The notes: generated by a model from the sequence alone, not told the origin. DNA of 62,139 bases from Actinomycetes bacterium (GCA_021790115.1 JAJYIM010000004.1:1-62139), one strand, 5' to 3'. Numbered from the stretch's first letter, positions 12,133 through 27,934 are shown. Numbers and translations: made by a program.

Positions 12133-12213
12133 AAAAACGGTTGCGGGTTGCCGATCCTTACCAGCGTGCGTCCATCATGACTGCGAAACTAAAGTTTAAT
12201 AAAGGGAGGATCC

Positions 12214-12978
12214 ATGGGTGTCATTGTAATCTTGATCGGCATTATCGGCTTTATTGTCATCCTGATGCTGCTGGCCGCTATCCGCGTCGCCAAGGAATAT
12301 GAGCGGGGCGTCATTTTCCGGCTGGGGCGGCTGATCGGCCAAAAAGGCCCTGGCCTGTTCCTGCTGCTGCCTGTTCTGGACCGGATGGTAAAAATCGACC
12401 TGCGCATCGTCACCATGAGCGTGCCGCCGCAGGAGGTGATCACCCGCGATAACGTCCCGGTCAAGGTCAACGCCGTCCTCTTCTTCCGCGTCCTTGACCC
12501 GCAAAAGGCGGTGATGGCCGTGGAGAACTTCATCATGGCCACCTCCCAGATCGCCCAGACGACCTTAAGGAGCACGCTGGGCCAGTCCGACCTGGACCAC
12601 CTGCTGGCCGAGCGCGACAAGATCAATCAGCAACTGCAAAAAATCATTGACGAGCAGACGGCTCCCTGGGGCATCAAGGTGACCACCGTGGAGGTCAAGG
12701 ACGTGGAGATTCCCCAGACAATGCAGCGGGCAATGGCAAGGCAGGCGGAAGCGGAGCGGGAGCGGCGGGCCAAGATCATCGCCGCCGAGGGCGAGTTCCA
12801 GGCCTCGGAGAAGCTGGCCAGCGCCGCCAATGTCATCTCTGCCGAGCCGATGGCGCTGCAACTGCGTTTTCTGCAAACCCTTGTCGAAGTTTCGTCAGAG
12901 CACAACTCAACCACCATCTTCCCCGTGCCGATAGATCTGATCAGGCCGTTCCTGGAAGGCGCTAAAACCAAAGAATAG
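12214..12978 (+). CDS. SPFH/band-7 (stomatin-like) protein
   Basis: [38 protein letters not shown]; standard partner of NfeD. Confidence 0.95.
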
Positions 12979-13035
12979 CCGGGACCCTGCTCCCAAACAG
13001 ATTGATCAGCGGGTTATAGAACTGGAATAAGAAAT

Positions 13036-13779
13036 ATGGTTCAATACGATTTACTAGATCAGGAGGCGGAAGCACAGGCGCTCAGGCAACCCGGCCGTAA
13101 GCCGGGAGCTGTGCCCTGGTCGGTGCGGGACGTTTTCGCGATTATCGCGCTAGTAGCCGCCGCCGACCTTGTCATTCTGGGCCTGTTTTTGCGGCTGCTG
13201 TCGCCGACCTCAACGGAAATTATCCAGGACCCGCTGCTTAGCCTGGCGTTCCTGCTCCTGCAGTGGGGGGTCACATTGGGGGCGGCCCTGGGCTACCTGA
13301 GGCTGCGCCGCTATTCTTTCAGGCCCGCAACGCTGGGGTTTAGGCCAACGGCGCCGGTAATGGCGGCGCTGATGGTGCTGGCGGTGCTGTTCCTCGCTTA
13401 TACCGGCTCGGCCGTTTACGATCAGTTTATTACGCCGCAGCCGCAACAGGCGCTGCAGGAGATCCAGCCGGGAATATATAACCTCGCCCTTGCCCTGCTG
13501 CAGATAGTTATTATTGCGCCCTTGGCGGAGGAGACTTTCTTTCGCGGCGTCATCCACCAGGGACTGGAGCAGGGGCTGGGATTCCTGCCCGGGGCGGTTC
13601 TGTCGGCGTCGATTTTCGCCCTGGCGCATTTTCAGCTTGATATTTTCGTGCCCATTTTTCTGCTTGGCTTCGGCTTTGCTTTCCTTGTGCACCGCACCCG
13701 TTCGCTTTGGCCTTCCATTGGCGGGCACATGCTGTTTAATCTGGTGGGCGTGATCGCGACGTACACGTCGCTCCGATAG
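13036..13779 (+). CDS. CPBP (CAAX protease-like) intramembrane metalloprotease
   Basis: APLAEETFFRG, FALAH, SLWPSIGGHMLFN motifs; multiple TMs. Confidence 0.92.
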   Translation: MVQYDLLDQEAEAQALRQPGRKPGAVPWSVRDVFAIIALVAAADLVILGLFLRLLSPTSTEIIQDPLLSLAFLLLQWGVTLGAALGYLRLRRYSFRPATLGFRPTAPVMAALMVLAVLFLAYTGSAVYDQFITPQPQQALQEIQPGIYNLALALLQIVIIAPLAEETFFRGVIHQGLEQGLGFLPGAVLSASIFALAHFQLDIFVPIFLLGFGFAFLVHRTRSLWPSIGGHMLFNLVGVIATYTSLR

Positions 13780-13844: not shown

Positions 13845-14049
13845 AGTGGATTTGTAATTCCTGCAGCCGTTTAATATAGTAACGCCGGAAATCAAGAAGC
13901 TAACTCAAGGGCGGCGTTCTTCGCGCGGGCGGATTTCACCGGCCTGACCTGCTGCTCGTCAAGTTCAACGATCCTGCTTTAACGCTTGTACAACATGCTT
14001 ACAGGCAAGAGTGAGAGCCACAAGGCCGTGGAGTTGTGCGGGGTTTGCA

Positions 14050-14421
14050 GTGACTCCTGATTACGCCCAAAGCTACGTTTACGTCGCGGCTTTGGGAATC
14101 GTCGGCTTTGGCTTTGTCCTCGCCACCATCGGCATCTCGCGGCTGCTGCAGCGGCGTCACACCTATTCCGAGAAGTTAACGCCATACGAGTGCGGCATCG
14201 AGCCGCTGGTGGGCGACAGCTGGTCCCCGTTCGCGGTGCGCTATTACATCTGTGCCCTCCTCTTCGTTATTTTTGACGTGGAGGCTGTTTTTGTCTACCC
14301 GTGGGCGCTGATCTTCCGCAGCCTGGGGAAGGCCGGCTTTGCCGAGATGATGATCTTTATCGCCGTGCTGCTGTTCGGGCTCATCTACGCCTGGGCCAAG
14401 GGCGCACTGGAGTGGAGCTAA
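14050..14421 (+). CDS. nuoA: NADH-quinone oxidoreductase subunit A
   Basis: PYECG, RYY...[14 protein letters not shown]; GTG at 14050 preferred over track start 14011. Confidence 0.95.
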
Positions 14422-14423
14422 AG

Positions 14424-14963
14424 ATGTCCGTCCTGGAGCGGTTCGAGCATCCCAACATCCTAACTACCACAACCGACTGGTTATTCAACTGGGCCAGGCT
14501 CAACTCGCTCTGGCCCTTCACTTACGGGCTGGCCTGCTGCGCCATCGAGATGATCGCCACGACGATGCCGCGCCATGACATGGCCCGCTTCGGGATGGAG
14601 GCCTTCCGCGCCACCCCGCGGCAAGCCGACGTCATGATCGTATCCGGCACTATTACGGACAAGATGGCGCCGGTGCTGGTGCACCTTTACCATCAGATGG
14701 CGGAGCCGCGCTGGGTGGTGGCGATGGGCGCCTGCGCGTCCGGCGGCGGCATGTTCTGGGATTCTTACAACGTGGTCCAGGGAGCGGACCTGCTGGTGCC
14801 TGTCGATATCTATATCCCCGGCTGCCCGCCCCGGCCCGAGGCGCTCATTTATGGCATGCGCCAGCTGCAGGAAAAAATCCGCCAGCAGACCCAGGTGGGC
14901 CTGGCGCGCAAACTGGCGGCGGGAACAATGGTTAAGTATGACCCCGGAGATGGTGGGCAATGA
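14424..14963 (+). CDS. nuoB: NADH-quinone oxidoreductase subunit B
   Basis: [35 protein letters not shown]; ATG 14424 follows the nuoA stop. Confidence 0.97.
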
Positions 14964-15508
14964 GCGCCGATCGTTCCGTCCCGGGCAGCGCCGAAGCAGC
15001 CGAGCTGGCCGAAGACCTGCTGGCGGGCCTGGCCACTGACGTCTACCAGGAAAAAGACCGGATCGTCATTGCGCTCATGCCGGATGTCCTGCCGGAAGCG
15101 GCGCTCAGGCTCCGGGACCACGCCCGGCTTTCCTTCAAGTACCTGAGTTTTGTCAGCGGCATCGACTATGAGGACAGGATGGACGCTATCTATATTCTGC
15201 GCTCGGTCAACCACCAGGTGGTGGCGGAGCTGCGGGTGCGGCTCGACCGCGGGCAGCCGGTTGTGCCGACCGTGTCAAACGTGTGGAGCACTGCCGGCTG
15301 GCACGAACGCGAGGCCTACGACCTGCTGGGCATCGTTTTCGAAGGTCATCCAGACCTGCGGCGGATCCTTACCCGTGGCGAAGACGGCGTCTTCCCGCTG
15401 CGCAAGGACGCCCAGCCGCACCGGGTCAGGCGCGATGAATGGCGGTTTGATGGCATTGCCGAGCCGCGGCGGCTGCCCGGCGAGGGCGGCCGGGAGCAAC
15501 GCTCATGA
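14960..15508 (+). CDS. nuoC: NADH-quinone oxidoreductase subunit C
   Basis: [35 protein letters not shown]. Confidence 0.95.
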
Positions 15509-15592
15509 GCAAAAGAAAGAGCGGGTCCAATCACTGAAGTCCAGGACATAACCAAAGCAACGTCCGAAAACCGCGACCTGCGGCTGGAGGAG

Positions 15593-16672
15593 ATGGTCCT
15601 TAACATGGGCCCCCAGCACCCGTCGACGCATGGCGTCCTCAGGCTGGTGCTGCATCTTGACGGCGAGCTGATCGTCAGCGCCGATCCCGACATCGGTTAT
15701 CTGCACCGGGGATTTGAAAGGCTGGCGGAGAACCGCACCTACCTGCAGTTCTTCTCGATGTTGTCGCGGCTCGACTACCTGGCCGGCTTCTTCATGGAAT
15801 GGGCTTACGTGCGCGCCATCGAAGAACTGATGGAGATTGAACCGCCGCCGCGGGCCGAATACCTGCGCGTCATCGTTGGCGAGCTTAACCGCATCATCAG
15901 CCATCACATGGGCATCGGCGACTACCTGCTTAACCTGGGCGCCGCCACGCCCATGTTCTGGATGTTCCGGGACCGCGAAGATGTCCTTGACCTGCTGGAG
16001 ATGCTCACAGGACAGAGGATGATGTACAATTTTGCGCGCGTCGGCGGCGTGCGCTACGACCTGCCGGACGGGTTTGAGGATAAATGCCGCAAGTTTCTGA
16101 AAGAATTTCCCGCCAGGATCGACGAGTACGAGCAGCTGATCACGGGCAACGAGATTTTCCTGGCCCGCTCAGTGGGGGTCGGCGTGATCACAGCGGAGGC
16201 AGCGCTTGACTTCGGCCTCTCGGGGCCAAACCTGCGCGCCGCCGGCATACCCTGGGACCTGAGGCGGGAAGACGCCTATTCTGTTTACCCGGAGCTTGAT
16301 TTTGACATTCCCACCGGCAAGAATGGCGACAGCTTCGACCGTTACAAGTGCCGCATCGAGGAGTTGCGCCAGTCGGTGCGCATCATCGGGCAGGCGCTGG
16401 ACGCGCTGCCCGGGGGCCCGGTCAATATGAGGATGCCGCCGATGCTGCGGCCGCCGGCGGGCGAGATATACTGCGCCGTGGAGACCGGGCGGGGTGAGTG
16501 GTCCAATTACTTGATCTCTGACGGGGGGCTGCGCCCGTACCGCCTGAAGCTGCGCGACTCCTGCTTTGTGGCTGTGTCCACGCTGCCTGAAATCCTGCCC
16601 GGCAACAAGGTCGCCGACGTGGTCGGGATCGCCGGCAGCCTTGATCTGATCATGGGAGCGGTGGACCGGTGA
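15593..16672 (+). CDS. nuoD: NADH-quinone oxidoreductase subunit D
   Basis: LNMGPQHPSTHGVLRL, GYLHRG, RLDY, ETGRGE, GAVDR; the true start is probably upstream (ATG 15505 with a one-base slip, see findings). Confidence 0.95.
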   Translation: MVLNMGPQHPSTHGVLRLVLHLDGELIVSADPDIGYLHRGFERLAENRTYLQFFSMLSRLDYLAGFFMEWAYVRAIEELMEIEPPPRAEYLRVIVGELNRIISHHMGIGDYLLNLGAATPMFWMFRDREDVLDLLEMLTGQRMMYNFARVGGVRYDLPDGFEDKCRKFLKEFPARIDEYEQLITGNEIFLARSVGVGVITAEAALDFGLSGPNLRAAGIPWDLRREDAYSVYPELDFDIPTGKNGDSFDRYKCRIEELRQSVRIIGQALDALPGGPVNMRMPPMLRPPAGEIYCAVETGRGEWSNYLISDGGLRPYRLKLRDSCFVAVSTLPEILPGNKVADVVGIAGSLDLIMGAVDR

Positions 16673-17766
16673 GCTGGGGCATGTCTTTCGCAATTCATCT
16701 GGTTGCAGCCCTGGTGATTGCGCTGGCCGTGCCTCTTTTAAGCGCCCTTGCTTTCCCCTTTGGCCTGCGGCGCATCTGGGGTTTCATGGGGGACCGCCTC
16801 GGCCCCAACCGCGTCGGCCCGCAGGGGCTGTTTCAGGCCCTGGCCGACAGCCTCAAGCTGTTCATCAAGGAGGACATCACGCCCAGCGGCAGCGACCGGC
16901 TGCTGTTTACACTGGCGCCGGTGATCGCGTTCATCACCCCGGTGCTGGCAATCTCGCTGATTCCTTTCAGCAAAGGGTTCACGATCGCCAACCTGAACGT
17001 GGGCCTGGTGTTCATTGTCGCCTTCGGGTCTTTCGCGGTCCTCGGCATCCTGCTGGCGGGCTGGGCGTCGCATAACAAATACTCGCTGCTGGGAGGGCTG
17101 CGCTCGGTGGCGCAGATGGTCTCTTACGAGATCCCGATGATCCTCAACATCATCATCATCGCCATGCTGGTGGGCTCGCTCAGCCTCGGCGACGTTGTTG
17201 GCGCCCAGGGAAAAATTTGGTATATAGCGGTCCAGCCGCTGGCGTTCATTGTTTTTATCATTGCCGGCATGGCTGAGCTTAACCGGACGCCGTTTGACCT
17301 GCCGGAGGCGGAATCGGAGCTGGTCGGCGGCTACATGACCGAGTACGGCGGCATGCGCTTCGGCTTCTTTTACGGCCTCATCGAGTGGGGCAACGTTGCC
17401 ATCTGGTCGCTGACCGGCGCCACCCTGTTTCTGGGCGGCTGGCGCGGGCCCTTCGCCGGCAGCCCCGGCTGGCTGATTTTAAAAGTACTGGTCCTGACGT
17501 TTGTGGTCATCTGGTTTTTCGCGACTTTCCCCCGCCTCCAGGTTGACCAGCTGATGAATTTTGCCTGGAAAGTGCTGATCCCGCTGAGCCTGGTCAATCT
17601 GGGGGTGACGGGCCTGCTGATTATCCTGCTGCCGGACAATTTCCTGCCGCCGGTGGCGGCGTTCAGCTGGGTTTCGGTGACCGCGGTAATCGTGCTGTTT
17701 CAACCGGTGTTAAGAAAGGCTCTGGTGCACAAGCGGCTCAAATTGAACCCCGGAACCCGGAACTAA
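16669..17766 (+). CDS. nuoH: NADH-quinone oxidoreductase subunit H
   Basis: RLGPNRVGPQG, DSLKLFIKED, SHNKYSLLGGLRSVAQMVSYE, NRTPFDLPEAESELVGGYMTEY. Confidence 0.97.
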   Translation: MSWGMSFAIHLVAALVIALAVPLLSALAFPFGLRRIWGFMGDRLGPNRVGPQGLFQALADSLKLFIKEDITPSGSDRLLFTLAPVIAFITPVLAISLIPFSKGFTIANLNVGLVFIVAFGSFAVLGILLAGWASHNKYSLLGGLRSVAQMVSYEIPMILNIIIIAMLVGSLSLGDVVGAQGKIWYIAVQPLAFIVFIIAGMAELNRTPFDLPEAESELVGGYMTEYGGMRFGFFYGLIEWGNVAIWSLTGATLFLGGWRGPFAGSPGWLILKVLVLTFVVIWFFATFPRLQVDQLMNFAWKVLIPLSLVNLGVTGLLIILLPDNFLPPVAAFSWVSVTAVIVLFQPVLRKALVHKRLKLNPGTRN

Positions 17767-17772
17767 TCAATC

Positions 17773-19584
17773 ATGATCGGCTTACTAAAAGGCTTGAAGA
17801 TAACCGGGGCCCACCTCTTCCGCAGGAAGGTGACGGTGCAATATCCGGAAGAGCGGCGTCAGCTGCCCGAGCGCAGCCGCGGGCTGATCCGCCTGCGCCT
17901 GAAGGCGGATGCGCTGACGCCGCGCTGCATTGCCTGCACCTTTTGCGAGCAGGTCTGCCCGGCCGTTGCTATCAAGGTTATTTATGATGACAAGCAGCCG
18001 GAAAAAGTGTGGCGCTTTGACGCTGGTGCCGGACCGATGCTGTCATTTTTCAATAAGGGCGAAAAAGCGGTGGGAATTCCAGAGTGGCCCCGCGCCGGCC
18101 TTAAGTGCGCCGCGCCCGAGAGGCACGGCTGCCTGGCCAACTCCTTGCTTGACGCAAAGGAGCTGACCGAGGAGGTGCTCACGGCCACTGCCGCAAGCAG
18201 CGGCGCCTGGCTCAGCCAGGTTTTTGGCGTCGCCACCTTTTATGACCAGTTGGGGCCGGGAGCGCCGGCGCTGGGGCCCGAGCCGGAAGAGCCCCCCGCC
18301 AGGGTCACCGCTGAGGGCTGCCCGCCGATTCTGCTGGGGAATATCGGCAACGTCGATCCGGAAAACATTGAATCATATTCCGGCGCCGGCGGTTACAAGG
18401 CCGTCACCAAAACGCTGACTGAGATGGCTCCGGCCGAGGTCGTGGACGAGATCGCCGTCAGCGGCCTCAGGGGCCGCAGCGGCTCCGGTTTCCCCACCGG
18501 ACGCAAGTGGCAGGTGGCGGCGGCGCAGAGCGCCGTCACAAAATTCATCATCTGCAACGGCGAAGAGGGCGATCCGGGATCAATAAAAGACCGCGTCATC
18601 CTGGAAGAGAATCCGCACGCGGTCATCGAGGGCATGATCTTGGCCGGCTATGCCGTGGGCGCCGGCGAAGGGATAATATACTTAAGCGCCGAAAACCGGC
18701 TGGCGGTGGAGAGGATCAGGCGGGCGGCGGAGCAGGCCGAAGACCGGGGCCTGCTGGCAGACGAGCTGCCCGGCACCGGCTTCACTTTTTCCATTCACGT
18801 AATAGAGGCGCCCCGCGCACCCGTCGGCGGAGAGGAAACGGCGCTGATCGCCGCCCTGGAAGGCAATCGGCCCATGCCGGGCGTGCGGCCGCCCTACCCG
18901 GCCGAGAAAGGCCTGCGGGGGATGCCAACCGTGGTTGAAAACGTCGAGACGCTGGCGACAGTGCCCTGGATCATCAACAACGGCGCCCGCGCCTTCCAGC
19001 AGCTGGGGGCGCCGCATGCCCCCGGAACCAAGCTCTTCACCTTGCTGGGGGCAGTGGGCAAACCTGGTCTTTACGAGTCCACGCTTGACACCAGCCTGAA
19101 GAAGCTCATCGTCACTGAAGCAGGCGGCTTTACCGGCCAGGCCAAGGCGGCCCTGATCGGGACAGTCTGGGGTGGTTTCCTGTCGCCGGGGCTTTTTGAC
19201 ATCCCCCTTGATTTTGATTCTATCCGGGAAGCCGGCGGCGACTTAAGCTCCGGCACCATAAATGTGCTGGGCGAGGATGCCTGTATTGTTGACGCGGTCC
19301 GGAAGTGCCTCGCCTTTGCTGCCGCCGAGTCGTGCGGCAAGTGCGTCCCTTGCCGGCTTGGCACCTGGCGCCTGCTTGATATTGTGGAAAAAATTTGCTT
19401 GGGCAAGGGGAGTGAGGCCGACATCGAGCTGGCCGAGGCGCTGGCCGGGGACGTTCAGGCAGGGGCGCTCTGCGGCCTGGGGCGCGGCGCCGTGCAGCCG
19501 TTTTTAACCGGCGTCAAGTTTTTCCGGGATGAATTTCTGGAGCACGCCGCCGAAGGGCGCTGCCGCGCCGGGAAATGCGGATAA
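17773..19584 (+). CDS. Fusion: N-terminal half of NuoI + NuoE-like helical remnant + NuoF/HydB-like FMN subunit
   Basis: aa 1-85 GLKITGAHLFRRKVTVQYPEE...CIACTFCEQVCP is NuoI with only its first Fe-S motif; LSQVFGVATFY resembles the NuoE N-terminal helix; GLRGRSGSGFPTGRKW, CNGEEGDPG, GEETAL, ESCGKCVPCRLG, LCGLG are NuoF motifs. Confidence 0.9.
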   Translation: MIGLLKGLKITGAHLFRRKVTVQYPEERRQLPERSRGLIRLRLKADALTPRCIACTFCEQVCPAVAIKVIYDDKQPEKVWRFDAGAGPMLSFFNKGEKAVGIPEWPRAGLKCAAPERHGCLANSLLDAKELTEEVLTATAASSGAWLSQVFGVATFYDQLGPGAPALGPEPEEPPARVTAEGCPPILLGNIGNVDPENIESYSGAGGYKAVTKTLTEMAPAEVVDEIAVSGLRGRSGSGFPTGRKWQVAAAQSAVTKFIICNGEEGDPGSIKDRVILEENPHAVIEGMILAGYAVGAGEGIIYLSAENRLAVERIRRAAEQAEDRGLLADELPGTGFTFSIHVIEAPRAPVGGEETALIAALEGNRPMPGVRPPYPAEKGLRGMPTVVENVETLATVPWIINNGARAFQQLGAPHAPGTKLFTLLGAVGKPGLYESTLDTSLKKLIVTEAGGFTGQAKAALIGTVWGGFLSPGLFDIPLDFDSIREAGGDLSSGTINVLGEDACIVDAVRKCLAFAAAESCGKCVPCRLGTWRLLDIVEKICLGKGSEADIELAEALAGDVQAGALCGLGRGAVQPFLTGVKFFRDEFLEHAAEGRCRAGKCG

Positions 19585-19641
19585 AGCGGACGCTGGATGC
19601 TGGATCCTGGAAAAAAAGTAAAGATTGACAGACGGGTGACA

Positions 19642-22134
19642 ATGACAAAAAGCATTAACGATAAACCGCAGACGCTGCCGCCGGTGCGGATATCGGGAAC
19701 CGGCGCCCCGGTGACCCTGACAATCAACGGCCAGGCCGTCAAGGCGCATGCGGGCGGCACCATCCTGGAAGCGGCCAAATCGGTCAAGATCAAGATCCCT
19801 TATCTTTGCTACACCAAGGGCCTGGAGCCGTTTGGCGGCTGCCGCGTCTGCGTCGTTGAAGTCGAGGGCGAAGAGCAGCCGCTGCCCGCCTGCGCCACCA
19901 TGGTCAAGGAAGGCATGGCCGTCACCACCGATAGCGAGCGCCTGCTCAGGCTGCGAAAAACCTATCTGGAGCTGCTCCTTTCTGACCATAATGCCTACTG
20001 CCTGCCGCCCTGCAAGTACGGCTGCCCCACCAATGTTGACATCCCTGCTTACCTGGGCCTGATCGGCGACCGCGATTACGATGAGTCGCAGCGGGTGCTG
20101 AAAGAAAACCTGCCCTTCCCGGCAATCGTGGGCCGGGTATGCCCGCATCCCTGCGAGAGCGCCTGCCGCCGCAGTGAGGTGGAGGAGTCGATCTCCATCC
20201 GCCTCTGCCACCGGTTCGTGGGAGACATTGCCATTCAGAAGGGACTTAAGCCGGAGCGGCCGGAGCCGCCCACCGGCAAGCAGGTGGCCGTGATCGGCGC
20301 CGGGCCGGCGGGGCTCGCCAACGCCTACTACCTGGCGCTCCGAGGCCATGCCGTCACTATCTTTGAGGCGCTTCCCGATACCGGCGGCATGCTTCGCTAC
20401 GGCATTCCCGAGTACCGCCTGCCCAAAAAAGTTTTAAACGCGGAGCTGGAGCCGCTCTGGGCAATGGGCGTTGAGCTTAAGACAGGCATGGCCCTGGGGC
20501 CGGACTTCTCTGTTGACGAGCTCCTCGGCGAGATGGGATTTGACGCCGTCTTCCTCGGCATCGGCGCCCATCAGAGCCGCTCGATGCGTGTCGAGGGCGA
20601 GGAAATGGAAGGCGTGATGCCGGTGGTGGAGTTCCTCCGTGATGTCGCCATGGGCAACCCGCCGGACATCCGCGACCGGGTGGCCGTCATTGGCGGCGGT
20701 TTCTCGGCCATGGACGCCGCCCGCGTCTCCAAGCGGCTGGGGGCCAAAGAGGTGACCGTCATCTACCGCCGCACCCAGAAAGAGATGCCCGCTGACCAAA
20801 TCGAGGTGCACGACGCCATGGAAGAGGGTGTCAAATTTACTTTCCTGGCGGCGCCGGTAAAAATCGAGGCCGCAGACGGGCGCATCACCGGTATCGTCTG
20901 CCAGAAAATGGAGCTGGGCGAGCCGGATGAAAGCGGCCGGCGGCGGCCGCAGCCGGTGCCGGGCTCCGATTACCTGACCAGGGTTGACACGATCATCCCC
21001 GCCATCGGGCAACTGCCAAAGCTTTCATATGTAGATGTCAAAACCAAAGAGGTTTGCCAGATCCTGCCGGAAGAAGGCGGGGTTGCCTGCACCCGCTGGC
21101 AGACAATCGAGATTAACCCCAAGACTTATCAGACCGGGCGGCTGCAGGTGTTCGCCGCCGGCGACGCCGCCACCGGCGCCAAAACGGTGGTGGAAGCAAT
21201 TGGCGGCGCCAAGAAGGCCGCCTGGGCGATGGACGCTTTCCTTAAGGGGGAAGACATGGCTGCCTACGAAGCCGCCCTGCCCGCCTTTGACAAACCGCCG
21301 ATGGTTGCTATCCCCGCCTACCGCGAGGAAAAGATGGAGCGCCAGCTGACGCCCCAGCTGACGGAGAAGGAGCGCGAGGGCAATTTTCTCGAAATCGACC
21401 GGGGCTTTTCCGAGCAGGCCGCCGGCGCCGAAAGCCGCCGCTGCCTGCAATGCATCTGTGAAGGCGTCGAGACCTGCAAGCTCAGGCGCTACAGCCTGGC
21501 GGCCGGGCTGATCAAGGAAGAAGGCAACCGCTTTGCCGGCGTGCAAAACCTTTACGGGCGCGACAGCACGCACGCCTTCATCCAGAGGGACCCCAACCGC
21601 TGCATCAATTGCGGCCGCTGCATCCGCGTCTGCAAGTTCCTGACCGGCTCCGGAGTTTACGATTTTGCCTACCGCGCCCGGCGGACCATCGCCACTCCGC
21701 CGTTTGACCGCTCGCTCAATGACACGGACTGTGTCTCCTGCGGCCGCTGCGCCACTATCTGCCCCACCGGAGCGCTTTTTATGAAAGAGCGGCAGCTTGA
21801 CAACTGGCATCTGGATACGTCCCGCTGCATTTTCTGCGCCGATTGCGTTGAGGTCTGCCCGGTGGAGTCGCTGGCAATTACGCCCGCATTCGAGCTGGCT
21901 GCGCCCGGGCACGGGCAACTGCACAACAACCTGCTTGAGATGGCCCGGGGAGTGGACTTAAACCCCGAGGGCGCTTTCCAGCAGGATCATGCCGCCAGGC
22001 CGGGCCAGGACCACGCCGCCAAGCAATATCAAAAAGAGGTGCATGCCGGGGAGCAGGCCGGCTCCGAGGCCGAAAGCAGCGAAACGGCCGCGCCTGCCGC
22101 CGCTCAGCCGGATAAAAACGAGGAGCCGCAGTAA
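19642..22134 (+). CDS. Fusion: NuoG/HydA-type Fe-S domains with inserted GltD/SudA-like FAD-NAD(P)H domain + C-terminal half of NuoI
   Basis: [2Fe-2S] C-x10-C-x2-C..C (CYTKGLEPFGGCRVC...AC); LLSDH then GltD-type PCKYGCP...CPHPCESAC, GAGPAG, GGGFSAMD, IYRR; CLQCICEGVETC; CINCGRCIRVC and CVSCGRCATICP; then WHLDTSRCIFCADCVEVCPVESLAITPAFELA, the second NuoI motif region. Start 19642 or 19597. Confidence 0.9.
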   Translation: MTKSINDKPQTLPPVRISGTGAPVTLTINGQAVKAHAGGTILEAAKSVKIKIPYLCYTKGLEPFGGCRVCVVEVEGEEQPLPACATMVKEGMAVTTDSERLLRLRKTYLELLLSDHNAYCLPPCKYGCPTNVDIPAYLGLIGDRDYDESQRVLKENLPFPAIVGRVCPHPCESACRRSEVEESISIRLCHRFVGDIAIQKGLKPERPEPPTGKQVAVIGAGPAGLANAYYLALRGHAVTIFEALPDTGGMLRYGIPEYRLPKKVLNAELEPLWAMGVELKTGMALGPDFSVDELLGEMGFDAVFLGIGAHQSRSMRVEGEEMEGVMPVVEFLRDVAMGNPPDIRDRVAVIGGGFSAMDAARVSKRLGAKEVTVIYRRTQKEMPADQIEVHDAMEEGVKFTFLAAPVKIEAADGRITGIVCQKMELGEPDESGRRRPQPVPGSDYLTRVDTIIPAIGQLPKLSYVDVKTKEVCQILPEEGGVACTRWQTIEINPKTYQTGRLQVFAAGDAATGAKTVVEAIGGAKKAAWAMDAFLKGEDMAAYEAALPAFDKPPMVAIPAYREEKMERQLTPQLTEKEREGNFLEIDRGFSEQAAGAESRRCLQCICEGVETCKLRRYSLAAGLIKEEGNRFAGVQNLYGRDSTHAFIQRDPNRCINCGRCIRVCKFLTGSGVYDFAYRARRTIATPPFDRSLNDTDCVSCGRCATICPTGALFMKERQLDNWHLDTSRCIFCADCVEVCPVESLAITPAFELAAPGHGQLHNNLLEMARGVDLNPEGAFQQDHAARPGQDHAAKQYQKEVHAGEQAGSEAESSETAAPAAAQPDKNEEPQ

Positions 22135-22631
22135 TGCAATTCTCGACGCCGGTTTTCTATATTGTGGCGGCGCTTGTGATTATTCCGGCGGTGCTGATGG
22201 TTATGTTCCGCAACCTCATTTACAGCGCCATCGCCATGATCGCCTGCTTCATCGGAGTGGCGGCGGTGTTTGTCACCTTAAACGCGGAGCTGCTGGCTGC
22301 GTCGCAGCTGCTCATTTACGTGGGCGCGATATCGATCCTGATCCTGTTTGCCATCATGCTAACCCGTAGCCGCAGCGGCGCCGTCAACCTGTTTTTCCAC
22401 CGGCAGGCCTGGATGGCGCTGCCGGCCGCCGCGGCGCTTGCCGTTGTCCTGGGCGCAGTGCTGGGCACGGCCCGGTTCAGCGCCGGCGATACTCCTAAAA
22501 ACCCGGCCACGGGGAACCTGGCCAGCCTGCTCTTTAACCAGTATGCCTTCCCGTTCGAGCTGGCGTCGCTGGTGCTGCTGGCGGCAATTATCGGCACCGT
22601 CCTGCTGGCCAAAAAAGAGAGTCGCCCTTGA
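22134..22631 (+). CDS. nuoJ: NADH-quinone oxidoreductase subunit J
   Basis: [51 protein letters not shown]. Confidence 0.96.
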
Positions 22632-22936
22632 CGTCGCTGCAACATTACCTGGTCCTGGCAGGCGCGCTTTTTTCGGTGGGCGCCTGGGGGGTGCTGGCGC
22701 GCCGCAACATCATCATGGTGGTGATGAGCCTGGAGCTGATGTTTAACGCCGTCAATATCGCCCTGGTGGCATTCTCCAATTACTCATCCGCCGGGGCGGG
22801 CCGGGGAGAGGTGTTCGTCTTTTTTGTGCTGGCCATTGCTGCCGCCGAGGTTGCGGTTGGCCTGGCAATCGGCATCGCCATGTACCGCCTGCGCGAAAAG
22901 CTTGACGTTGATGAATTAGATGAATTGAAAGGATGA
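22628..22936 (+). CDS. nuoK: NADH-quinone oxidoreductase subunit K
   Basis: RRNII...[21 protein letters not shown]. Confidence 0.97.
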
Positions 22937-23006
22937 TCGATGCGGGGTGCGCAAAACCAAAGCGGCGGCCCAGTGGGCCGCCTGCGGAACAAGGTGAATA
23001 ACTGAA

Positions 23007-24896
23007 TTGAAGACAGCCGTCCTGCTCATACCGTTGCTGCCTTTGGCTTCGTTTATCATCACGGGGTTATTCGGCCGCCGTTATTTTAAGGAGAAAAGTC
23101 ACTACCTGTCAGTGGCGTCAGTGGCCTTAAGCTGGGTTCTGTCCATGTACGTCTTCATCCAGGTAGAGCGCGGCCAGACTTTATCCTGGCAGATTTATAA
23201 CTGGATTGCCGCCGGCAGGTTTAATGTCGATATCGGCTTTCTTGTCGATGAGCTGACCGCCATCATGCTCCTGGTTGTGTCAACGGTCGGCTTCATGGTT
23301 CATGTTTACTCGATCGGCTACATGCACGGCGACAAGGGCTACTACCGCTTCTTCGCCTATATCAACCTGTTCATGTTCTCGATGTTCATGCTGGTCCTGG
23401 CGAACAACTACCTGCTTCTCTACGTTTTCTGGGAAGCGGTGGGGCTGTGCTCATACCTGCTGATCGCCTTCTGGTTCCCCAAGCTAAGCGCCTCCAACGC
23501 CGGCATGAAAGCCTTCCTGGTCAACCGCGTCGGCGACTTCGGCTTCGGCTTGGGAATCATGCTCGTTTTCGTGACGCTGGGAACGCTTAGCTACAGCAGC
23601 GTTTTTGCTGCCGCCGGCACGCTGGGCGGCGGCATGGTCACCGCCATCTGCCTGCTGCTTTTTACCGGCGCAGTCGGCAAGAGCGCCCAGTTCCCACTGC
23701 ATGTCTGGCTGCCGGACGCCATGGAGGGCCCAACGCCGGTCAGCTCGCTGATCCACGCCGCTACGATGGTCAACGCCGGCGTCTACATGGTGGCCCGCTC
23801 CAGCCCACTGTTTGCCCACTCGCACACCGCCATGCTGGTGGTGGCCGCGGTGGGAACATTTACCGCCATTTTTGCCGCCACCATTGCCCTTGTCCAGAAC
23901 GACATCAAGAAGGTGCTGGCTTACTCCACGATCAGCCAGCTCGGCTACATGTTTATGGCGCTTGGCGTCGGCGCCTGGACCGCGGCCATGTTCCACCTGC
24001 TGGCGCACGGCTTTTTCAAGGGCCTGCTCTTCCTCTGCTCCGGCTCGGTAATTCATGCCCTTGACGGCGAGCAGGACATGCGCAAGATGGGCGGCCTCAA
24101 AAACAAGGTCAAGATTACTTACTGGACATTTTTTATCGGCGCCCTGGCGCTGTCCGGCTTTCCCGGCCTATCCGGCTTCTTCAGCAAGGACGCTATTCTC
24201 TCGGGAGCATTCAGCGGGGGCTACTGGTACTTCTGGATCGTAGCCCTGATCACCGTCTTCCTGACGGCTTTCTATTCGTTCCGGCTGATATTCATGACCT
24301 TCCACAACGAGCCGCGCACGGACCCTAAAATCTTTGCCCACGCGCACGAGTCGCCGCCGATAATGACGGTGCCGCTGATCGTTCTGTCGGTGCCAACGGT
24401 GGTGGCCGGCCTGGTGCTTGGCCTTCCACCGGAGGGCGGCCACATCGACCATTTTCTGCATCGCGTCTTTGCCGCCGCCATTACCGCGCCGGAGCATGCG
24501 TTCAGCTATCTGACGCTTGCCCTGATGATTATCTCTGCGGCCGTGGGCATCGCCGGCATACTCACCGCCTGGCACTTTTACCTGCGCTGCCCGTTTTTGC
24601 CGGCGGCAGCCTGCAAGCGCGCCGGCCGGCTTTATACGCTGCTGCTGAACAAGTACTACATTGATGAGATCTATTTCGCTGTTATCATCAACCCGGTGCG
24701 GCGCTTCTCTGCCTGGCTCTGGCGCATAGTTGACGCCGGCATCATCGACGGCGCCGTCAATGGGACGGGCTGGATTGCTCTTGGCGCCGGCCGCATCCTC
24801 AGGCCAATCCAGTCTGGCAAAGTGCAGGGGTATTTGTTTGCGATGTTTTTGGGACTTTTGGCTCTAATGGTAGCGTATCTGATATTGACTTTATGA
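23007..24896 (+). CDS. nuoL: NADH-quinone oxidoreductase subunit L
   Basis: WEAVGLCSYLLI, KAFLVNRVGDFG, GKSAQFPLHVWLPDAMEGPTPVS, IKKVLAYSTISQLG. Confidence 0.97.
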   Translation: MKTAVLLIPLLPLASFIITGLFGRRYFKEKSHYLSVASVALSWVLSMYVFIQVERGQTLSWQIYNWIAAGRFNVDIGFLVDELTAIMLLVVSTVGFMVHVYSIGYMHGDKGYYRFFAYINLFMFSMFMLVLANNYLLLYVFWEAVGLCSYLLIAFWFPKLSASNAGMKAFLVNRVGDFGFGLGIMLVFVTLGTLSYSSVFAAAGTLGGGMVTAICLLLFTGAVGKSAQFPLHVWLPDAMEGPTPVSSLIHAATMVNAGVYMVARSSPLFAHSHTAMLVVAAVGTFTAIFAATIALVQNDIKKVLAYSTISQLGYMFMALGVGAWTAAMFHLLAHGFFKGLLFLCSGSVIHALDGEQDMRKMGGLKNKVKITYWTFFIGALALSGFPGLSGFFSKDAILSGAFSGGYWYFWIVALITVFLTAFYSFRLIFMTFHNEPRTDPKIFAHAHESPPIMTVPLIVLSVPTVVAGLVLGLPPEGGHIDHFLHRVFAAAITAPEHAFSYLTLALMIISAAVGIAGILTAWHFYLRCPFLPAAACKRAGRLYTLLLNKYYIDEIYFAVIINPVRRFSAWLWRIVDAGIIDGAVNGTGWIALGAGRILRPIQSGKVQGYLFAMFLGLLALMVAYLILTL

Positions 24897-26464
24897 CCAT
24901 GTATTCCTTCCAATCCCAAATAGGCTTCCCAATATTAAGCGTCATGACGTTCCTGCCCACGCTGGGCGCGGTGGCCATGCTGCTGTTGATGCGCGGCCGG
25001 CCGCGGCTTTACAAGTTCACCGCCTTGGCGGCCACCGGCGCCACGTTCATTCTGTCGCTGCTGATGCTGGCGAAGTTCGACCAGTACACCGCCGATTTCC
25101 AGTTCATCGAAAAAGTCAACTGGATTCATCGCCTTGGCGCCAGCTACCACATGGGTGTGGACGGCATTAGCGTGCTGCTTATCCTGTTGACGACGCTGCT
25201 GTCTTTGATCATCATCCCGGCTTCCTGGAACTATATCAAGGACCGCGAGCTTGGCTTCTTTGCCTCCTTCCTGTTTTTGGAGACCGGCATGTTGGGCACC
25301 TTCTGCGCCCGCGACCTGCTCCTCTTCTATGTCTTCTGGGAAATCATGCTGATTCCGATGTACTTCATCATCGGCGTCTGGGGCGGCCCGCGGCGCATCT
25401 ATGCGGCGCTCAAGTTTTTCCTGTTTACGATGGCCGGCAGCGTCCTGATGCTGGTCGCCATTGTCGGCATTGCTTATCTGGCGCGGCCGAACCAGTACGC
25501 GCCGCCCGTTTTCGACCTGGACCAGCTGCAAAACGCCGTATTTTCCTTCCCTGTGCAAATGGCCGCCTTCCTGGCTTTCTTTATCGCCTTTGCCATCAAG
25601 GTGCCGATGTGGCCGCTGCACACCTGGCTTCCGGATGCACACGTGGAGGCGCCGACGGCGGGCAGCGTCATCCTGGCCGGCGTGCTGCTGAAAATGGGCG
25701 GCTACGGCATCATCCGTTTCTGCATCCCGCTCTTTCCCGACGCCGTCGCGGCCTCGATACCATATATCCTTATCTTGTCAATAATCGCCATTATTTACGG
25801 CGCCCTGGTCTCGCTGGTGCAGAAAGATTTAAAAAAGCTGGTCGCCTACTCCAGCGTCAGCCACATGGGTTTTGTCACGGGGGGAATCTTTGCCTTTAGC
25901 GTCATTGGCCTTGAGGGCGCGCTGCTGGTGATGTTCAGTCACGGCCTGCTGACCGGCGCCCTGTTCCTGATGGTCGGCTTCATGTATGAGCGCCTGCACA
26001 CGCGGGAGATTTCCGCCATGGGTGGGTTGGCCTCGCCTTTCCCGGTGATGGCTGCGTTCTTGCTTTTCTTCACGCTGGGCTCGCTGGGCCTGCCGGGGCT
26101 ATCCGGCTTCATCGGCGAATTCCTCAGCCTCTTGGGCCTGTTCACATACAACAAGGCGATGGCGGTAGTCGCCGCCGCCGGCATTATTCTGGCGGCCGCC
26201 TACCTGCTGTGGATGTACCTGCGGGTAATGTTTACCGAAACGCGGGACCAGAAATGGTTCCGGCTTTCGGACTTGAGCCTGCGCGAGATCGCCTCGCTGG
26301 CGCCGCTGGCCGGCCTGGCTGTGTGGGTGGGCGTGTACCCCAACACCTTCATCAACATCATCCATCCGTCCGCGAGCCATTTAATTGATCACATGAGTCC
26401 TTATCTTGCCCAGCATGGCGACTTCCTGACGCGCATTTTCGCCTCGCTTGGAGGTGGACGCTAG
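24893..26464 (+). CDS. nuoM: NADH-quinone oxidoreductase subunit M
   Basis: GVDGIS, FWEIMLIPMY, IKVPMWPLHTWLPDAHVEAPTAGS, KKLVAYSSVSHMG. Confidence 0.97.
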   Translation: MTMYSFQSQIGFPILSVMTFLPTLGAVAMLLLMRGRPRLYKFTALAATGATFILSLLMLAKFDQYTADFQFIEKVNWIHRLGASYHMGVDGISVLLILLTTLLSLIIIPASWNYIKDRELGFFASFLFLETGMLGTFCARDLLLFYVFWEIMLIPMYFIIGVWGGPRRIYAALKFFLFTMAGSVLMLVAIVGIAYLARPNQYAPPVFDLDQLQNAVFSFPVQMAAFLAFFIAFAIKVPMWPLHTWLPDAHVEAPTAGSVILAGVLLKMGGYGIIRFCIPLFPDAVAASIPYILILSIIAIIYGALVSLVQKDLKKLVAYSSVSHMGFVTGGIFAFSVIGLEGALLVMFSHGLLTGALFLMVGFMYERLHTREISAMGGLASPFPVMAAFLLFFTLGSLGLPGLSGFIGEFLSLLGLFTYNKAMAVVAAAGIILAAAYLLWMYLRVMFTETRDQKWFRLSDLSLREIASLAPLAGLAVWVGVYPNTFINIIHPSASHLIDHMSPYLAQHGDFLTRIFASLGGGR

Positions 26465-27934
26465 TTGCAGCATGACGTCGTCGCTATAGTCCCGGAACTC
26501 ATGCTGATTGCCGCGGCGCTGGTATTGCTGCTGATAGACCCGTTCTTGCCGCCGGAAGGGCGGCGCGGCTTAAGCTGGCTGGGAATCATGGCCTGCCTGC
26601 CGGCGGCGGCGTCGGTATGGCTGGCGCGCTCGGAGCAGTTCTCCACTTTCTCGCACGGCATCGCCCTGGACAGGTTCGCCGTTTTCTTCAAGCTCCTGCT
26701 GCTGGCTGTGGCGGTGCTGGCGATGCTGCTTTCCGAAAAACACCTGGCCAAGAACGGGCGGCTGCTGGGCGACTACTACGCCCTGATTCTGCTGGCCACC
26801 GTCGGCATGATGGTGATGGCATCGGCGATAGACCTTGCCACCTTCTTTGTCGGCCTGGAGCTGATGGCGCTGTGCAGCTACCTGCTGGCCGGATTCTTCC
26901 GCTACCGCGAGCGCTCCATTGAAGCATCGCTGAAATATTTCCTCACCGGATCGTTTGCTTCCGCCATCCTGCTCTTTGGCATGGCGCTGCTTTATGGCAT
27001 CACCGGCAGCACCAATTACCAGGAAATCGGGGTGGCGATCAGCACCACGTCGTTGGACAGCCACGTGCTCGTGATCGCAATTGTCCTGCTTTTAGGAGGG
27101 TTTGCTTTCAAGGTGGCGGCGGCGCCGTTCCACGGCTGGGCGCCGGACGTTTACCAGGGAGCGCCGACCCCGGCGGCTGCATTCCTGTCTGTCGGCCCCA
27201 AAATCGCTGCCTTTGCCGCCATCATCAAGTTTTTTACGATCATGCTGGGCTCCGAGCAGGCTCGCTGGGTGCCGCTGATGATCGCGGTGGCCATTGCCAC
27301 CATGCTGATTGGGGCCACGATGGCGCTTCTGCAGCGCGACCTCAAGCGGATGCTGGCCTTCTCCAGCATCGCTCACGTTGGCTACCTGCTGCTGGCGCTG
27401 ATCGCCGCCGGCCAGAGCCACAGCAACCTGGGATCATCCGCCGTCCTCTTCTACCTGGCAGCCTACGCCGCGATGAACATGGGCGCCTTTGGCGTGCTGG
27501 TCTTCCTGGCAAATTCAGCCAGTTTTGGCGACAGCCTGGACGAGATGGCCGGCCTGGCGCGCCGTTTCCCCGGCGCTGCGGGCGTAATGGCCGTGCTGAT
27601 GTTCTCTCTGGCCGGGATCCCGCCTACCGCCGGTTTTCTGGCAAAATTCTACCTGTTTGCCAGCGTCGTTGACGCCGGCTACGCCTGGCTGGCCGTAATC
27701 GGGGTGCTGTTTAGCGTGGTCTCGGCGTTTTACTATCTGCGCGTGATCGTCTACATGTATATGCGCGAGCCATCGGCCGAGGCAGCGGCGGCGATGGAGC
27801 CGGCGGGCGGACGCTCGTGGGACTTAAGTCTGGGCCTGGGGTTGGCAACGGCGGCAGTGGTCATCCTGGGTGTGCTCCCAGGGCCGATTCTTAACGCGGC
27901 CCAGGACGCGGTGGCGAAGATACTGGGTTCGTAG
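26465..27934 (+). CDS. nuoN: NADH-quinone oxidoreductase subunit N
   Basis: GLELMAL, EASLKYF, FKVAAAPFHGWAPDVYQGAPTP, KRMLAFSSIAH, GIPPTAGF; TTG start directly after the nuoM stop. Confidence 0.96.
   Translation: MQHDVVAIVPELMLIAAALVLLLIDPFLPPEGRRGLSWLGIMACLPAAASVWLARSEQFSTFSHGIALDRFAVFFKLLLLAVAVLAMLLSEKHLAKNGRLLGDYYALILLATVGMMVMASAIDLATFFVGLELMALCSYLLAGFFRYRERSIEASLKYFLTGSFASAILLFGMALLYGITGSTNYQEIGVAISTTSLDSHVLVIAIVLLLGGFAFKVAAAPFHGWAPDVYQGAPTPAAAFLSVGPKIAAFAAIIKFFTIMLGSEQARWVPLMIAVAIATMLIGATMALLQRDLKRMLAFSSIAHVGYLLLALIAAGQSHSNLGSSAVLFYLAAYAAMNMGAFGVLVFLANSASFGDSLDEMAGLARRFPGAAGVMAVLMFSLAGIPPTAGFLAKFYLFASVVDAGYAWLAVIGVLFSVVSAFYYLRVIVYMYMREPSAEAAAAMEPAGGRSWDLSLGLGLATAAVVILGVLPGPILNAAQDAVAKILGS

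Follow-up and report, generated by a model that had tools for sequence, protein, structure and literature searches.

A candidate NADPH-fed variant of complex I carrying an Nfn/Stn-like input module inside a split nuoI

Which nucleotide feeds the complex I encoded on a 62,139-nucleotide stretch of an Actinomycetes bacterium genome (GCA_021790115.1 JAJYIM010000004.1:1-62139; hereafter, the window)? Complex I is regarded as an enzyme of NADH (or F420H2, or ferredoxin), and to our knowledge a natural complex I that oxidises NADPH and conserves energy has yet to be characterised, NADPH activity being known only from engineered NuoF. A preliminary description of the interval 19642-21790 had proposed that a NuoF-like protein and a NuoG/GltD fusion of the StnBC type wire a second, NADP(H)-using site to a proton-pumping quinone reductase. 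The interval falls inside a single open reading frame (ORF) on the plus strand, here called Y, and 21790 lies just short of the third CxxCxxCxxxCP motif of that ORF; the NuoF-like protein, X, is encoded directly before it in a nuo operon (Table 1). We conclude that the operon probably encodes an integrated, non-bifurcating variant of complex I fed by NADPH, in which a module that derives from the soluble NfnABC/StnABC (Bfu-family) transhydrogenases appears to have taken the place of the NADH-oxidising head (NuoE, NuoF and NuoG). Most of the probability left by this conclusion goes to an enzyme using both NADH and NADPH.

The sequence of Y was used to search for homologues among Protein Data Bank sequences with phmmer. 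The highest score was for NfnA of the NfnABC complex from Caldicellulosiruptor saccharolyticus (9bov_A, E 4.7e-185 over Y residues 40-748), followed by StnC from Sporomusa ovata (8oh5_C, E 5.5e-173) and NfnA from Thermococcus sibiricus (9n5u_A, E 4.9e-154). Matches to NfnB/NfnL (E 1e-81 to 1e-82; 5.5e-82 for NfnB 4ylf_B) and to GltD (E 5.7e-58) were far weaker. An AlphaFold2 (AF2) model of Y made with 118 homologues has a mean predicted local distance difference test score (pLDDT) of 83, and Foldseek returned the same three complexes on top when given this model, with E values from 2e-77 (9bov) and 6e-76 (8oh5) down to 9e-71. Y is a close homologue of StnC/NfnA that lacks the formate-dehydrogenase-like (Fdh-like) domain. 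The likeness, at 40-55% identity, runs up to the A4 cluster and takes in the N-terminal [2Fe-2S] domain, the GltD/NfnL-like domain set within the His-cluster motif, and the 2x[4Fe-4S] domain. Among the 25 best of the 30 Pfam families matched to Y there is no molybdopterin or H-cluster family, as the preliminary description had held, and such a domain could not fit because only 91 residues remain past the last Cys motif. Y carries the database names 'FAD-dependent oxidoreductase' and 'formate dehydrogenase major subunit'; the latter, given by JGI, conflicts with the absence of a molybdopterin domain. An assignment of Y as a GltD or formate dehydrogenase paralogue was rejected, the best NCBIfam match (PRK12814) scoring 614 bits against a cut-off of 916.

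The motifs on which the NADP(H) site had been proposed, including CLQCICEGVETC, are all in place within this one ORF, and the GltD-like domain does lie between the His and the Cys parts of the NuoG-type cluster; the order of the ligands, however, would differ in detail from that first described. The His cluster is probably formed by H131-x3-C135 together with C621-x5-C627, as these residues follow the NuoG pattern H-x3-C-x2-C-x5-C, and the pair C616-x2-C619 would be the start of a GltD/NfnB-type cluster motif (RCLxC). On this assignment the insert begins not directly past the His but after the second ligand of the cluster, C135, and is interleaved with the cluster motif, as is the GltD domain of StnC. 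Cysteines 616, 619, 621 and 627 are invariant in the 118 homologues, to which all statements on the conservation of Y refer, as are the ligands of the N-terminal [2Fe-2S] cluster (C71, C82, C85 and C99). The insert holds two [4Fe-4S] sites (C139, C143, C182, C186, C190 and H205) and R274. All hallmarks of the GltD/NfnB/SudA-type domain are present in Y, namely two N-terminal [4Fe-4S] sites, the GxGxxG loop for FAD, a second loop of the GxGxxA type, and an RR pair that closes the next strand. Beyond the insert, the motifs of the 2x[4Fe-4S] domain begin at C669 and C712 and align with the dicluster of StnC/NfnA, and the 4Fe-4S motifs identified by Pfam span residues 661-757.

The residues expected to bind flavin adenine dinucleotide (FAD) and NADPH in Y are strictly kept. 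Residues G234, G236, G239, R267, Y273 and R274 are invariant, as are G366-G368, F369, D373, Y390, R391 and R392, and H205 is nearly so. In a residue-by-residue alignment, H205 and R274 of Y correspond to K170 and R239 of StnC, of which the former is an unusual ligand of the FAD-proximal cluster, replaced in Y by His, and the latter is needed for activity (PMC10482914). StnC has NADPH bound in its solved structure and, in isolated form, oxidises this nucleotide (PMC10482914, PMC7483475). The GGGF...D loop, the YRR motif (shared with StnC) and the FAD residues match NADPH-bound StnC, which supports the proposed NADP(H) site in Y.

How is this module joined to the quinone-reducing arm? The connection is NuoI, which is divided between X and Y. 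NCBIfam models for NuoI match X residues 3-75 and Y residues 705-774, and residues 1-95 of X joined to residues 731-795 of Y align as a single collinear stretch on full-length NuoI/TYKY (E 1.4e-19 for the fly subunit and E 3.8e-12 for Nqo9 of T. thermophilus). This alignment takes in the characteristic P-x-FE that follows the second cluster motif, and a family profile for the N-terminal half in X matches TYKY with E 5e-22. In X, C52, C55, C58 and C62 are invariant in 44 of 44 members of the clade in which this half is fused to NuoF; in Y, C744 and C747 show no variation, and C750, C754 and P755 almost none. We considered whether the third Cys motif of Y could be the A5/N7 cluster of an Fdh domain, and rejected this since the motif is a ferredoxin-type CxxCxxCxxxCP followed by the P-x-FE of NuoI, not the CxxCxxxC of molybdopterin domains. 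In the 2x[4Fe-4S] ferredoxin fold, each cluster is held by three cysteines of one motif and a fourth from the other; with NuoI split, N6a and N6b would both be built from cysteines of X and Y. The two halves, with four cysteines each, must on this pattern co-fold into the two-cluster N6a/N6b domain predicted to dock on NuoB, NuoC, NuoD and NuoH. When Y was modelled without its partner, the NuoI half had a pLDDT below 50 with the rest of Y confident, which fits a half-domain in need of its counterpart.

A BfuC-like gene carries the 5' half of nuoI and a BfuA-like gene the 3' half, each as a fusion. A complete cassette resembling stnABC/nfnCBA thus interrupts nuoI, at the place between nuoH and nuoJ where that gene would stand. 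The fusions tie the X/Y module physically to the quinone-reducing arm, and a failure of X and Y to co-purify with the membrane arm is unlikely because the NuoI halves are covalently part of both proteins. In this respect the proposed wiring of an Stn-like module to a proton-pumping quinone reductase gains support from the complete nuo operon as well as from the fusions.

The origin of X agrees with that of Y. From residue 186 to its end, X matches the NfnB/StnB/HydB chains with E values from 3e-125 (9bov_B) through 4e-121 (StnB) to 3e-118, ahead of NuoF/Nqo1 from solved complex I structures (E 1e-92 or weaker). The alignment stops at residue 523 of the 584 in StnB/NfnB, and the C-terminal 2x[4Fe-4S] domain (B3/B4) is absent from X by both Pfam and the phmmer alignment. 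The four cysteines of the N3 cluster are present (C521, C524, C527 and C567). The linker between the NuoI half and this core gave a non-significant match to HydC when searched as a single sequence (E 0.83); a 13-member family profile matched StnA (8oh5_A, E 1.4e-19) and also NfnC, HydC and NuoE at positions ~110-240. The linker resembles the N-domain of StnA/NfnC, and neither the family profile nor the sequence reveals the thioredoxin-like 2Fe-2S domain or its Cys motif in this NuoE remnant (X residues ~120-165). Together, X and Y are a StnB/StnC-type pair (BfuB/BfuA of the Bfu family, Nfn/Stn type), which bears out the first assignment, the top matches from phmmer and Foldseek being Nfn/Stn chains.

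The operon itself (14011-27934, plus strand) has the order nuoA-B-C-D-H-X-Y-J-K-L-M-N with little space between the genes. No separate nuoE, nuoG or nuoI gene is present within it, as judged from the ORF list and a Pfam search for each subunit. All seven membrane subunits (NuoA, H, J, K, L, M and N) were matched by Pfam, with E values between 1e-28 and 1e-108. NuoB retains the cysteines of the N2 cluster (CC...GACASGG...PGCPP), and NuoD keeps both the His (HPSTHG) and the Tyr (RLDY) of the quinone site. The membrane arm and the quinone (Q) module are complete. Decay of the operon into pseudogenes was also considered and rejected, since every ORF is intact and conserved across two phyla.

Table 1. 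Genes, domains and motifs of the nuo operon in the window. Nucleotide positions are counted from the first letter of the window.
Feature	Residues	Nucleotides	Strand	Assignment or remark
nuoA		14011-14421	+	Pfam Oxidored_q4, E 4e-37; start codon uncertain
nuoB		14424-14963	+	Pfam Oxidored_q6, E 6e-29
nuoC		14960-15508	+	Pfam Complex1_30kDa, E 1.6e-34
nuoD		15593-16672	+	Pfam Complex1_49kDa, E 5e-94
nuoH		16669-17766	+	Pfam NADHdh, E 3e-108
X	603 aa	17773-19584	+	NuoI N-half, NuoE-like remnant and NuoF-like core
NuoI N-half	X 1-90	17773-18042	+	Membrane-arm docking segment and first CxxCxxCxxxCP (C52-P63, nucleotides 17926-17961)
NuoE/StnA/HydC N-terminal helical domain remnant	X 91-185	18043-18327	+	Family profile; ...GVATFYDQL
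NuoF/StnB-like flavoprotein core	X 186-603	18328-19584	+	Pfam Complex1_51K, NADH_4Fe-4S
Y	845 aa	19597-22134	+	StnC/NfnA-like NuoG-GltD fusion ending in NuoI C-half
N-terminal [2Fe-2S] domain (N1b/A1-like)	Y 37-113	19705-19935	+	Pfam Fer2_4, E 6e-21
His-cluster first half (N5/A3-like), LLSDHNAYC	Y 127-135	19975-20001	+	H131 and C135 invariant
LLSDH	Y 127-131	19975-19989	+	
GltD/NfnL-like insert	Y 136-615	20002-21441	+	Pfam Fer4_20 (135-216), Pyr_redox_2 (229-536)
PCKYGCP	Y 138-144	20008-20028	+	
CPHPCESAC	Y 182-190	20140-20166	+	
GAGPAG	Y 234-239	20296-20313	+	FAD loop
GGGFSAMD	Y 366-373	20692-20715	+	NADPH loop
IYRR	Y 389-392	20761-20772	+	
CLQCICEGVETC	Y 616-627	21442-21477	+	Cysteines completing GltD-type and His clusters
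2x[4Fe-4S] ferredoxin-like domain (A2/N4-like, A4-like)	Y 661-727	21577-21777	+	Pfam Fer4_7, Fer4_Nqo3
NuoI C-half	Y 735-800	21799-21996	+	Second CxxCxxCxxxCP of NuoI, third of Y (C744-P755, nucleotides 21826-21861), and P-x-FE motif
Acidic low-complexity tail	Y 801-845	21997-22131	+	Not conserved in alignments; pLDDT <50
nuoJ		22134-22631	+	Pfam Oxidored_q3, E 7e-32; start overlaps Y stop codon
nuoK		22628-22936	+	Pfam Oxidored_q2
nuoL		23007-24896	+	Pfam Proton_antipo_N, Proton_antipo_M
nuoM		24893-26464	+	Pfam Proton_antipo_M
nuoN		26465-27934	+	Pfam Proton_antipo_M

A path for electrons through these parts can be proposed. NADPH would bind the GltD-like Rossmann domain of Y and reduce FAD, from which electrons would pass first over the pair of GltD-type [4Fe-4S] clusters, then to the His-ligated one and on to a junction cluster resembling A2 and N4. 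From A2 they would leave by the A4-like cluster to the composite N6a and N6b of the X/Y-shared NuoI, and then reach N2 in NuoB and, presumably, menaquinone, whose reduction would drive proton pumping by NuoH, A, J, K, L, M and N. In canonical complex I it is instead N5, the equivalent of A3, that hands over to N6a. The surface of the His-ligated cluster in Y would be taken up by the GltD insert, unlike that of canonical N5. In NfnABC of C. saccharolyticus the main chain runs FAD-A7-A6-A3(His)-A2-A1(2Fe-2S)-B1-FMN, FMN being flavin mononucleotide, and a side branch A2-A4-A5 leads into an inactive Fdh-like domain (PMC11829005). The chain in Stn is equivalent, with electrons moving between its FAD and FMN. 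The ligands of A7, A6, A3, A2, A1 and A4 are conserved in Y, whose NuoI half begins ~20 residues past the A4 motif, aligned with the position of the A5 motif in NfnA. Because NuoI takes the place of A5, we infer that the 'dead-end' A4 branch has become the exit.

At a minimum, the NuoF-like and NuoE-like parts would have been retained to scaffold the split NuoI. In NfnABC, the N-domain of NfnC sits in the cleft between the Fdh-like domain and the Rossmann fold of NfnB (PMC11829005). By the same topology, the N-terminal half of NuoI would be placed just where the C-terminal half emerges from Y, which would explain why members that have lost N3 still have the NuoE-like and NuoF-like parts.

The preliminary description had counted two nucleotide sites in the input module. 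The site in Y is supported, its determinants being invariant, whereas that in X is not established, given the variation that N3 and the FMN pocket show across the family. The NuoF sites were compared between 66 HydB/StnB-like, 52 Thermoleophilia-type and 64 Chloroflexota-type sequences, in Nqo1 numbering (X numbering minus 170). D94 is Asp in all 66 HydB/StnB-like sequences, in 9 of the 52 Thermoleophilia-type and in none of the 64 Chloroflexota-type, 63 of which have Tyr or Phe. N219 is likewise Asn throughout the HydB/StnB-like group (66/66), is replaced by Glu or Asp in 50 of 52 Thermoleophilia-type sequences and remains Asn in 30 of 64 of the Chloroflexota type. F70, G99 and F101 are conserved in the HydB/StnB-like group and variable in both complex-I-linked groups, and the N3 cluster, complete in the former, lacks a Cys in 21/52 and 43/64 of the latter two.

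In the window, X shows the changes G66S, A68S, D94E, F101I, Y180P, K202R, F205Y and N219E. Other positions (K75, N92, E95, E97 as Asp, D103, G183, E184, E185 and T223) are invariant or nearly so in the NuoF-like family, and X itself keeps, besides N92 and G183, the NAD-contact residues K245, E265, D267, D273, E354 and E355 (these six in X numbering). Several of the retained NuoF residues contact NADH (PMC6560083), and the set includes the Lys that NAD binding requires and the Glu by which NuoF/FdsB shut out NADPH (PMC10671435). The FMN pocket of X has been remodelled, not erased. When the window is compared with the loci from Chloroflexota, no large subunit is conserved less than the NuoF part (median identity 38.6%, against 44-47% for Y, 46.5% for NuoD, 55% for NuoB and 47-52% for NuoH, NuoL and NuoM). 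NuoF ranks among the best-conserved subunits of ordinary complex I. Taken over the whole family, the pattern favours NADPH as the entry point that has been conserved.

The arrangement is not peculiar to the window. A genome pattern scan, with one genome per species, returned at least 600 matching stretches, at least 505 of which encode a relative; these counts are lower bounds, and the loci recovered in this way are from Chloroflexota at 40-51% identity and are not the nearest relatives. The best 80 loci come from Limnocylindria, other Chloroflexota, Ktedonobacteria (including Ktedonobacter robiniae and Thermogemmatispora) and a few Thermoleophilia/Actinomycetota, and homologues of Y with ~800 residues and the same domains are numerous. 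With the window subunits as tblastn queries, 40 loci were found to have the order ...nuoH-[I'E']-[F]-[Y]-nuoJ... with both junctions spanned, where I'E' denotes the NuoI N-half with the NuoE-like part; a further 16 of this nuoH...nuoJ type are interrupted by a contig end, 13 have the order NuoB-[I'E']-F-Y and eight NuoB-NuoD-[I'E']-F-Y. In 40/40 of the loci spanning both junctions the cassette stands where nuoI would be, after nuoH and before nuoJ, and tblastn found no intact nuoI at the cassette position in any related locus listed, these 40 included. The I'E' protein is encoded by a separate gene of 213-280 residues in 64 of 67 loci, and its fusion to NuoF, as in the window, defines a clade of ~52 protein clusters assigned, where named, to Thermoleophilia, Gaiellales or Actinomycetota. 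The closest relatives are 87-89% identical in Y and share the flanks (NfeD, Band-7 and Rce1-like genes upstream and RmuC downstream), and in two of them (L002 and L084) the operon has the same gene order. As the split-NuoI junctions are the same in Thermoleophilia and Chloroflexota, independent acquisition in the two groups is unlikely. Hundreds of genomes from soil and freshwater bacteria carry the arrangement, mostly those of Chloroflexota, with Thermoleophilia in addition.

Several points weigh against a complex I fed by NADPH only. The exit by the A4-like cluster is drawn from sequence topology, and confidence of AF2 in the NuoI half of Y is low, as it is for a chimera of X residues 1-95 and Y residues 731-795 modelled on a single sequence (pLDDT 33.7). 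X of the window keeps the four N3 cysteines and the NAD-contact residues, so that X may still oxidise NADH, and the [2Fe-2S] cluster by which X connects to Y shows no variation, which would be odd for an X of purely structural role. The last two observations also speak for a dual-donor enzyme, in which the FMN site of X, using NADH, and the FAD site of Y, using NADPH, would both be active and feed the same iron-sulphur (Fe-S) junction, possibly with uncoupled transhydrogenation. In such an enzyme the retained NADPH-excluding Glu would make the X site, if working, specific for NADH and so complementary to Y, and the invariant N1b-like cluster would serve the same FAD-to-FMN chain as in Stn. We regard this as the most serious competitor, though on balance unlikely, since positions invariant in the 66 HydB/StnB-like proteins are changed in the window and variable in the family, N3 is incomplete in many members of both groups, and the NuoF part is conserved least. 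An open short circuit from NADPH to NAD+ would moreover waste ~100 mV, and selection against it would be expected; as a speculation, such selection could explain the erosion of N3 and of the FMN pocket.

The same wiring could also run backwards, with proton-motive force driving electrons from menaquinol uphill to NADP+ and so supplying NADPH for biosynthesis or CO2 fixation in organisms growing on high-potential donors such as H2, CO or trace gases. Complex I is reversible, the GltD/NfnL-type domain works in both directions in Nfn/Stn, and the carriers include Thermogemmatispora carboxidivorans, other Ktedonobacteria and Thermoleophilia, among which groups trace-gas oxidisers are known. The operon and its flanks, however, have no link to autotrophy or to hydrogenase or carbon monoxide dehydrogenase genes, and sequence does not discriminate between directions of flow; we hold reverse operation as the normal mode to be improbable. 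Descent of X and Y from Bfu-family proteins might instead suggest an enzyme that, like StnABC/NfnABC, bifurcates or confurcates in a ferredoxin-dependent way, or one passing electrons from NAD(P)H and reduced ferredoxin to quinone like the Nuo-Bfu complexes already predicted (PMC9304861). The C1 [2Fe-2S] cluster of BfuC (StnA/NfnC), the C-terminal B3/B4 of BfuB (StnB) and the thioredoxin-like domain at the N-terminus of BfuB are all missing, and as removal of C1 or of B3/B4 abolishes bifurcation in Stn and HydABC (PMC11829005), bifurcation here is highly unlikely. This ferredoxin-dependent alternative, which sits poorly with carriers that are mostly aerobes, is accordingly given very little weight. 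Hardly any remains for a soluble oxidoreductase that is merely encoded in the nuo operon and takes no part in the complex, with NuoI supplied from elsewhere. The closest solved relatives are indeed soluble, and in some genomes B-I'-F-Y or B-D-I'-F-Y stands away from the membrane-arm genes. Against this, X and Y each contain one half of NuoI by covalent fusion, the docking N-terminus included, a single half motif of NuoI would be useless alone, none of the 40 operons spanning both junctions has an intact nuoI, and even the short clusters always carry NuoB.

The NADPH-fed, non-bifurcating enzyme therefore remains the preferred interpretation. The account in all its particulars, namely an NADPH-specific, proton-pumping complex I derived from an nfnCBA/stnABC-like operon inserted in nuoI, with N6a and N6b shared by two polypeptides, exit by a formerly dead-end Fe-S branch, the NuoF-like part reduced to a scaffold, and occurrence in hundreds of genomes, is plausible but falls somewhat short of likely.

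Some of the related loci differ in their make-up. Ktedonobacteria such as Thermogemmatispora carboxidivorans (L001) and Ktedonobacter robiniae (L022), L030 and similar loci have the short cluster NuoB-I'E'-F-Y, and some Limnocylindria have NuoB-NuoD-I'E'-F-Y; no membrane-arm genes are found within 10 kb of these clusters, which always include NuoB, the carrier of N2. In some Chloroflexota (L003, L008, L013, L015, L017 and others), the I'E' protein of 265-280 residues has a thioredoxin-like domain with four cysteines (CxCxxC...C) and may bind a 2Fe-2S cluster like N1a or C1. Shorter I'E' versions (213-250 residues) and X of the window are without this domain, a series that would correspond to a stepwise loss of the bifurcation-type cluster across the family. 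The closest relatives of Y outside complex I (P0034, P0038 and P0048; L083 214-4395), with ~50% identity and 850 residues, continue into the start of an Fdh-like domain (Molybdop_Fe4S4) and are followed by a separate gene for a 526-residue molybdopterin domain, as in a split StnC/NfnA. Two single polypeptides of ~1020-1056 residues (P0193 and P0195) have a HydB-type NuoF, with canonical FMN motifs and an N-terminal 2Fe-2S domain, fused directly to a GltD-like FAD/NADPH domain, apparently another and undescribed joining of two nucleotide modules.

In comparison with known systems, the closest enzymes are the soluble NfnABC/StnABC complexes and the closest concept is the predicted Nuo-Bfu. X resembles StnB/NfnB in its core with altered residues in the FMN pocket, and Y departs from StnC/NfnA where the Fdh-like domain with its A5 cluster, used there for tetramerisation, is replaced by the NuoI half. 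The genes for X and Y lie in a nuo operon of probable aerobes, whereas NfnABC/StnABC are encoded next to Wood-Ljungdahl or fermentation genes. The X/Y module is almost certainly neither bifurcating nor soluble, unlike those complexes.

With canonical complex I the predicted enzyme shares the seven membrane subunits, NuoB, NuoC and NuoD, a NuoF-like protein with N3, and NuoG-type N1b, N4 and N5-like clusters. It differs in that NuoI is on two polypeptides, NuoE is a remnant without N1a, and Y is without the large C-terminal domain of NuoG and has instead an FAD/NADPH domain and an extra cluster. Electrons would probably reach NuoI by the A4-like cluster in place of N5. The gene order is A-B-C-D-H-[I'-E'-F]-[G/GltD-'I]-J-N, against the canonical A-B-C-D-E-F-G-H-I-J-N.

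Nuo-Bfu is a predicted 14-subunit complex I of Geobacter, Deferribacteres, Planctomycetes and Nitrospirae in which BfuABC stands for NuoEFG (Schut et al. 2022, PMC9304861). It has an intact NuoI, a full BfuBC core with B3/B4 and C1, and no GltD/NADPH domain, and confurcation of NADH and ferredoxin has been proposed for it. The type seen in the window has an Nfn-type BfuA, is without the bifurcation parts, and has a split NuoI with the module in the slot between nuoH and nuoJ. As a complex I with an exchanged input device on a conserved 11-subunit core (PMC3144371), it can be set beside Fpo (FpoF/F420H2), cyanobacterial NDH-1 (ferredoxin) and Campylobacter NuoX/Y, although none of these is known to have a GltD-type FAD/NADPH domain or a split NuoI. 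Engineered NADPH-oxidising variants of E. coli complex I, altered at NuoF E183, were directed at the same activity, energy-converting NADPH:quinone oxidoreduction (mentioned in PMC10671435). There the FMN site of NuoF was mutated, whereas the window has a separate FAD site for NADPH and leaves the corresponding Glu of the NuoF-like protein unchanged. In the literature searched, in which coverage of subscription papers was incomplete, neither an Nfn-type NADPH module on complex I nor a split NuoI is described.

If the proposal is correct, large groups of soil and freshwater bacteria couple their NADPH pool directly to the proton-motive force or, were the flow reversed, make NADPH from quinol, and models of redox balance for the carrier phyla would change. 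In vivo the potential of the NADPH pool is ~100 mV lower than that of the NADH pool, an advantage where the acceptor, menaquinone for example, is itself of low potential. The locus would also illustrate modular evolution, in which an enzyme once soluble and bifurcating lost the parts for bifurcation and was spliced into a membrane pump, and the split NuoI would offer natural inter-subunit Fe-S clusters at the junction of the NADH-oxidising (N) and Q modules, useful for studies of complex I assembly. Since the proteins are annotated in generic terms ('FAD-dependent oxidoreductase', 'NuoF'), metabolic reconstructions miss NuoI, NuoG and NuoE or call the complex incomplete.

Directly upstream of nuoA lie an NfeD-Band 7 (stomatin-like) pair and a Rce1-like CAAX protease gene (10738-13779, plus strand), in an order also seen in L002 and L084; these genes may be linked in function to complex I, perhaps in quality control of membrane complexes. 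Just downstream of RmuC, a transposase-like ORF (30262-31536, plus strand; HTH_32, HTH_23, HTH_29 and HTH_28) lies in a segment whose GC content dips to 0.49 at 30001-32000 and which is absent from the syntenic relative L084; it is probably an insertion element.

Elsewhere in the window, a type I restriction-modification methylase (1145-2311, plus strand; HsdM_N and N6_Mtase) and a protein with MqsA-antitoxin and SocA/Panacea domains (3108-4166, plus strand) occupy a segment (1145-4166) in which GC content dips to 0.47 at 2001-4000, and which looks like a small, horizontally acquired islet of defence or toxin-antitoxin genes. A cyclic di-GMP-I riboswitch (46852-46937, plus strand; Rfam RF01051, 61.6 bits, E 1.2e-9) lies downstream of a PilB/T2SSE ATPase gene (41787-43508) and directly upstream of two small genes with prepilin N-terminal methylation motifs (46993-47472 and 47685-48251), which suggests a type IV pilus or pseudopilus locus under the control of cyclic di-GMP.

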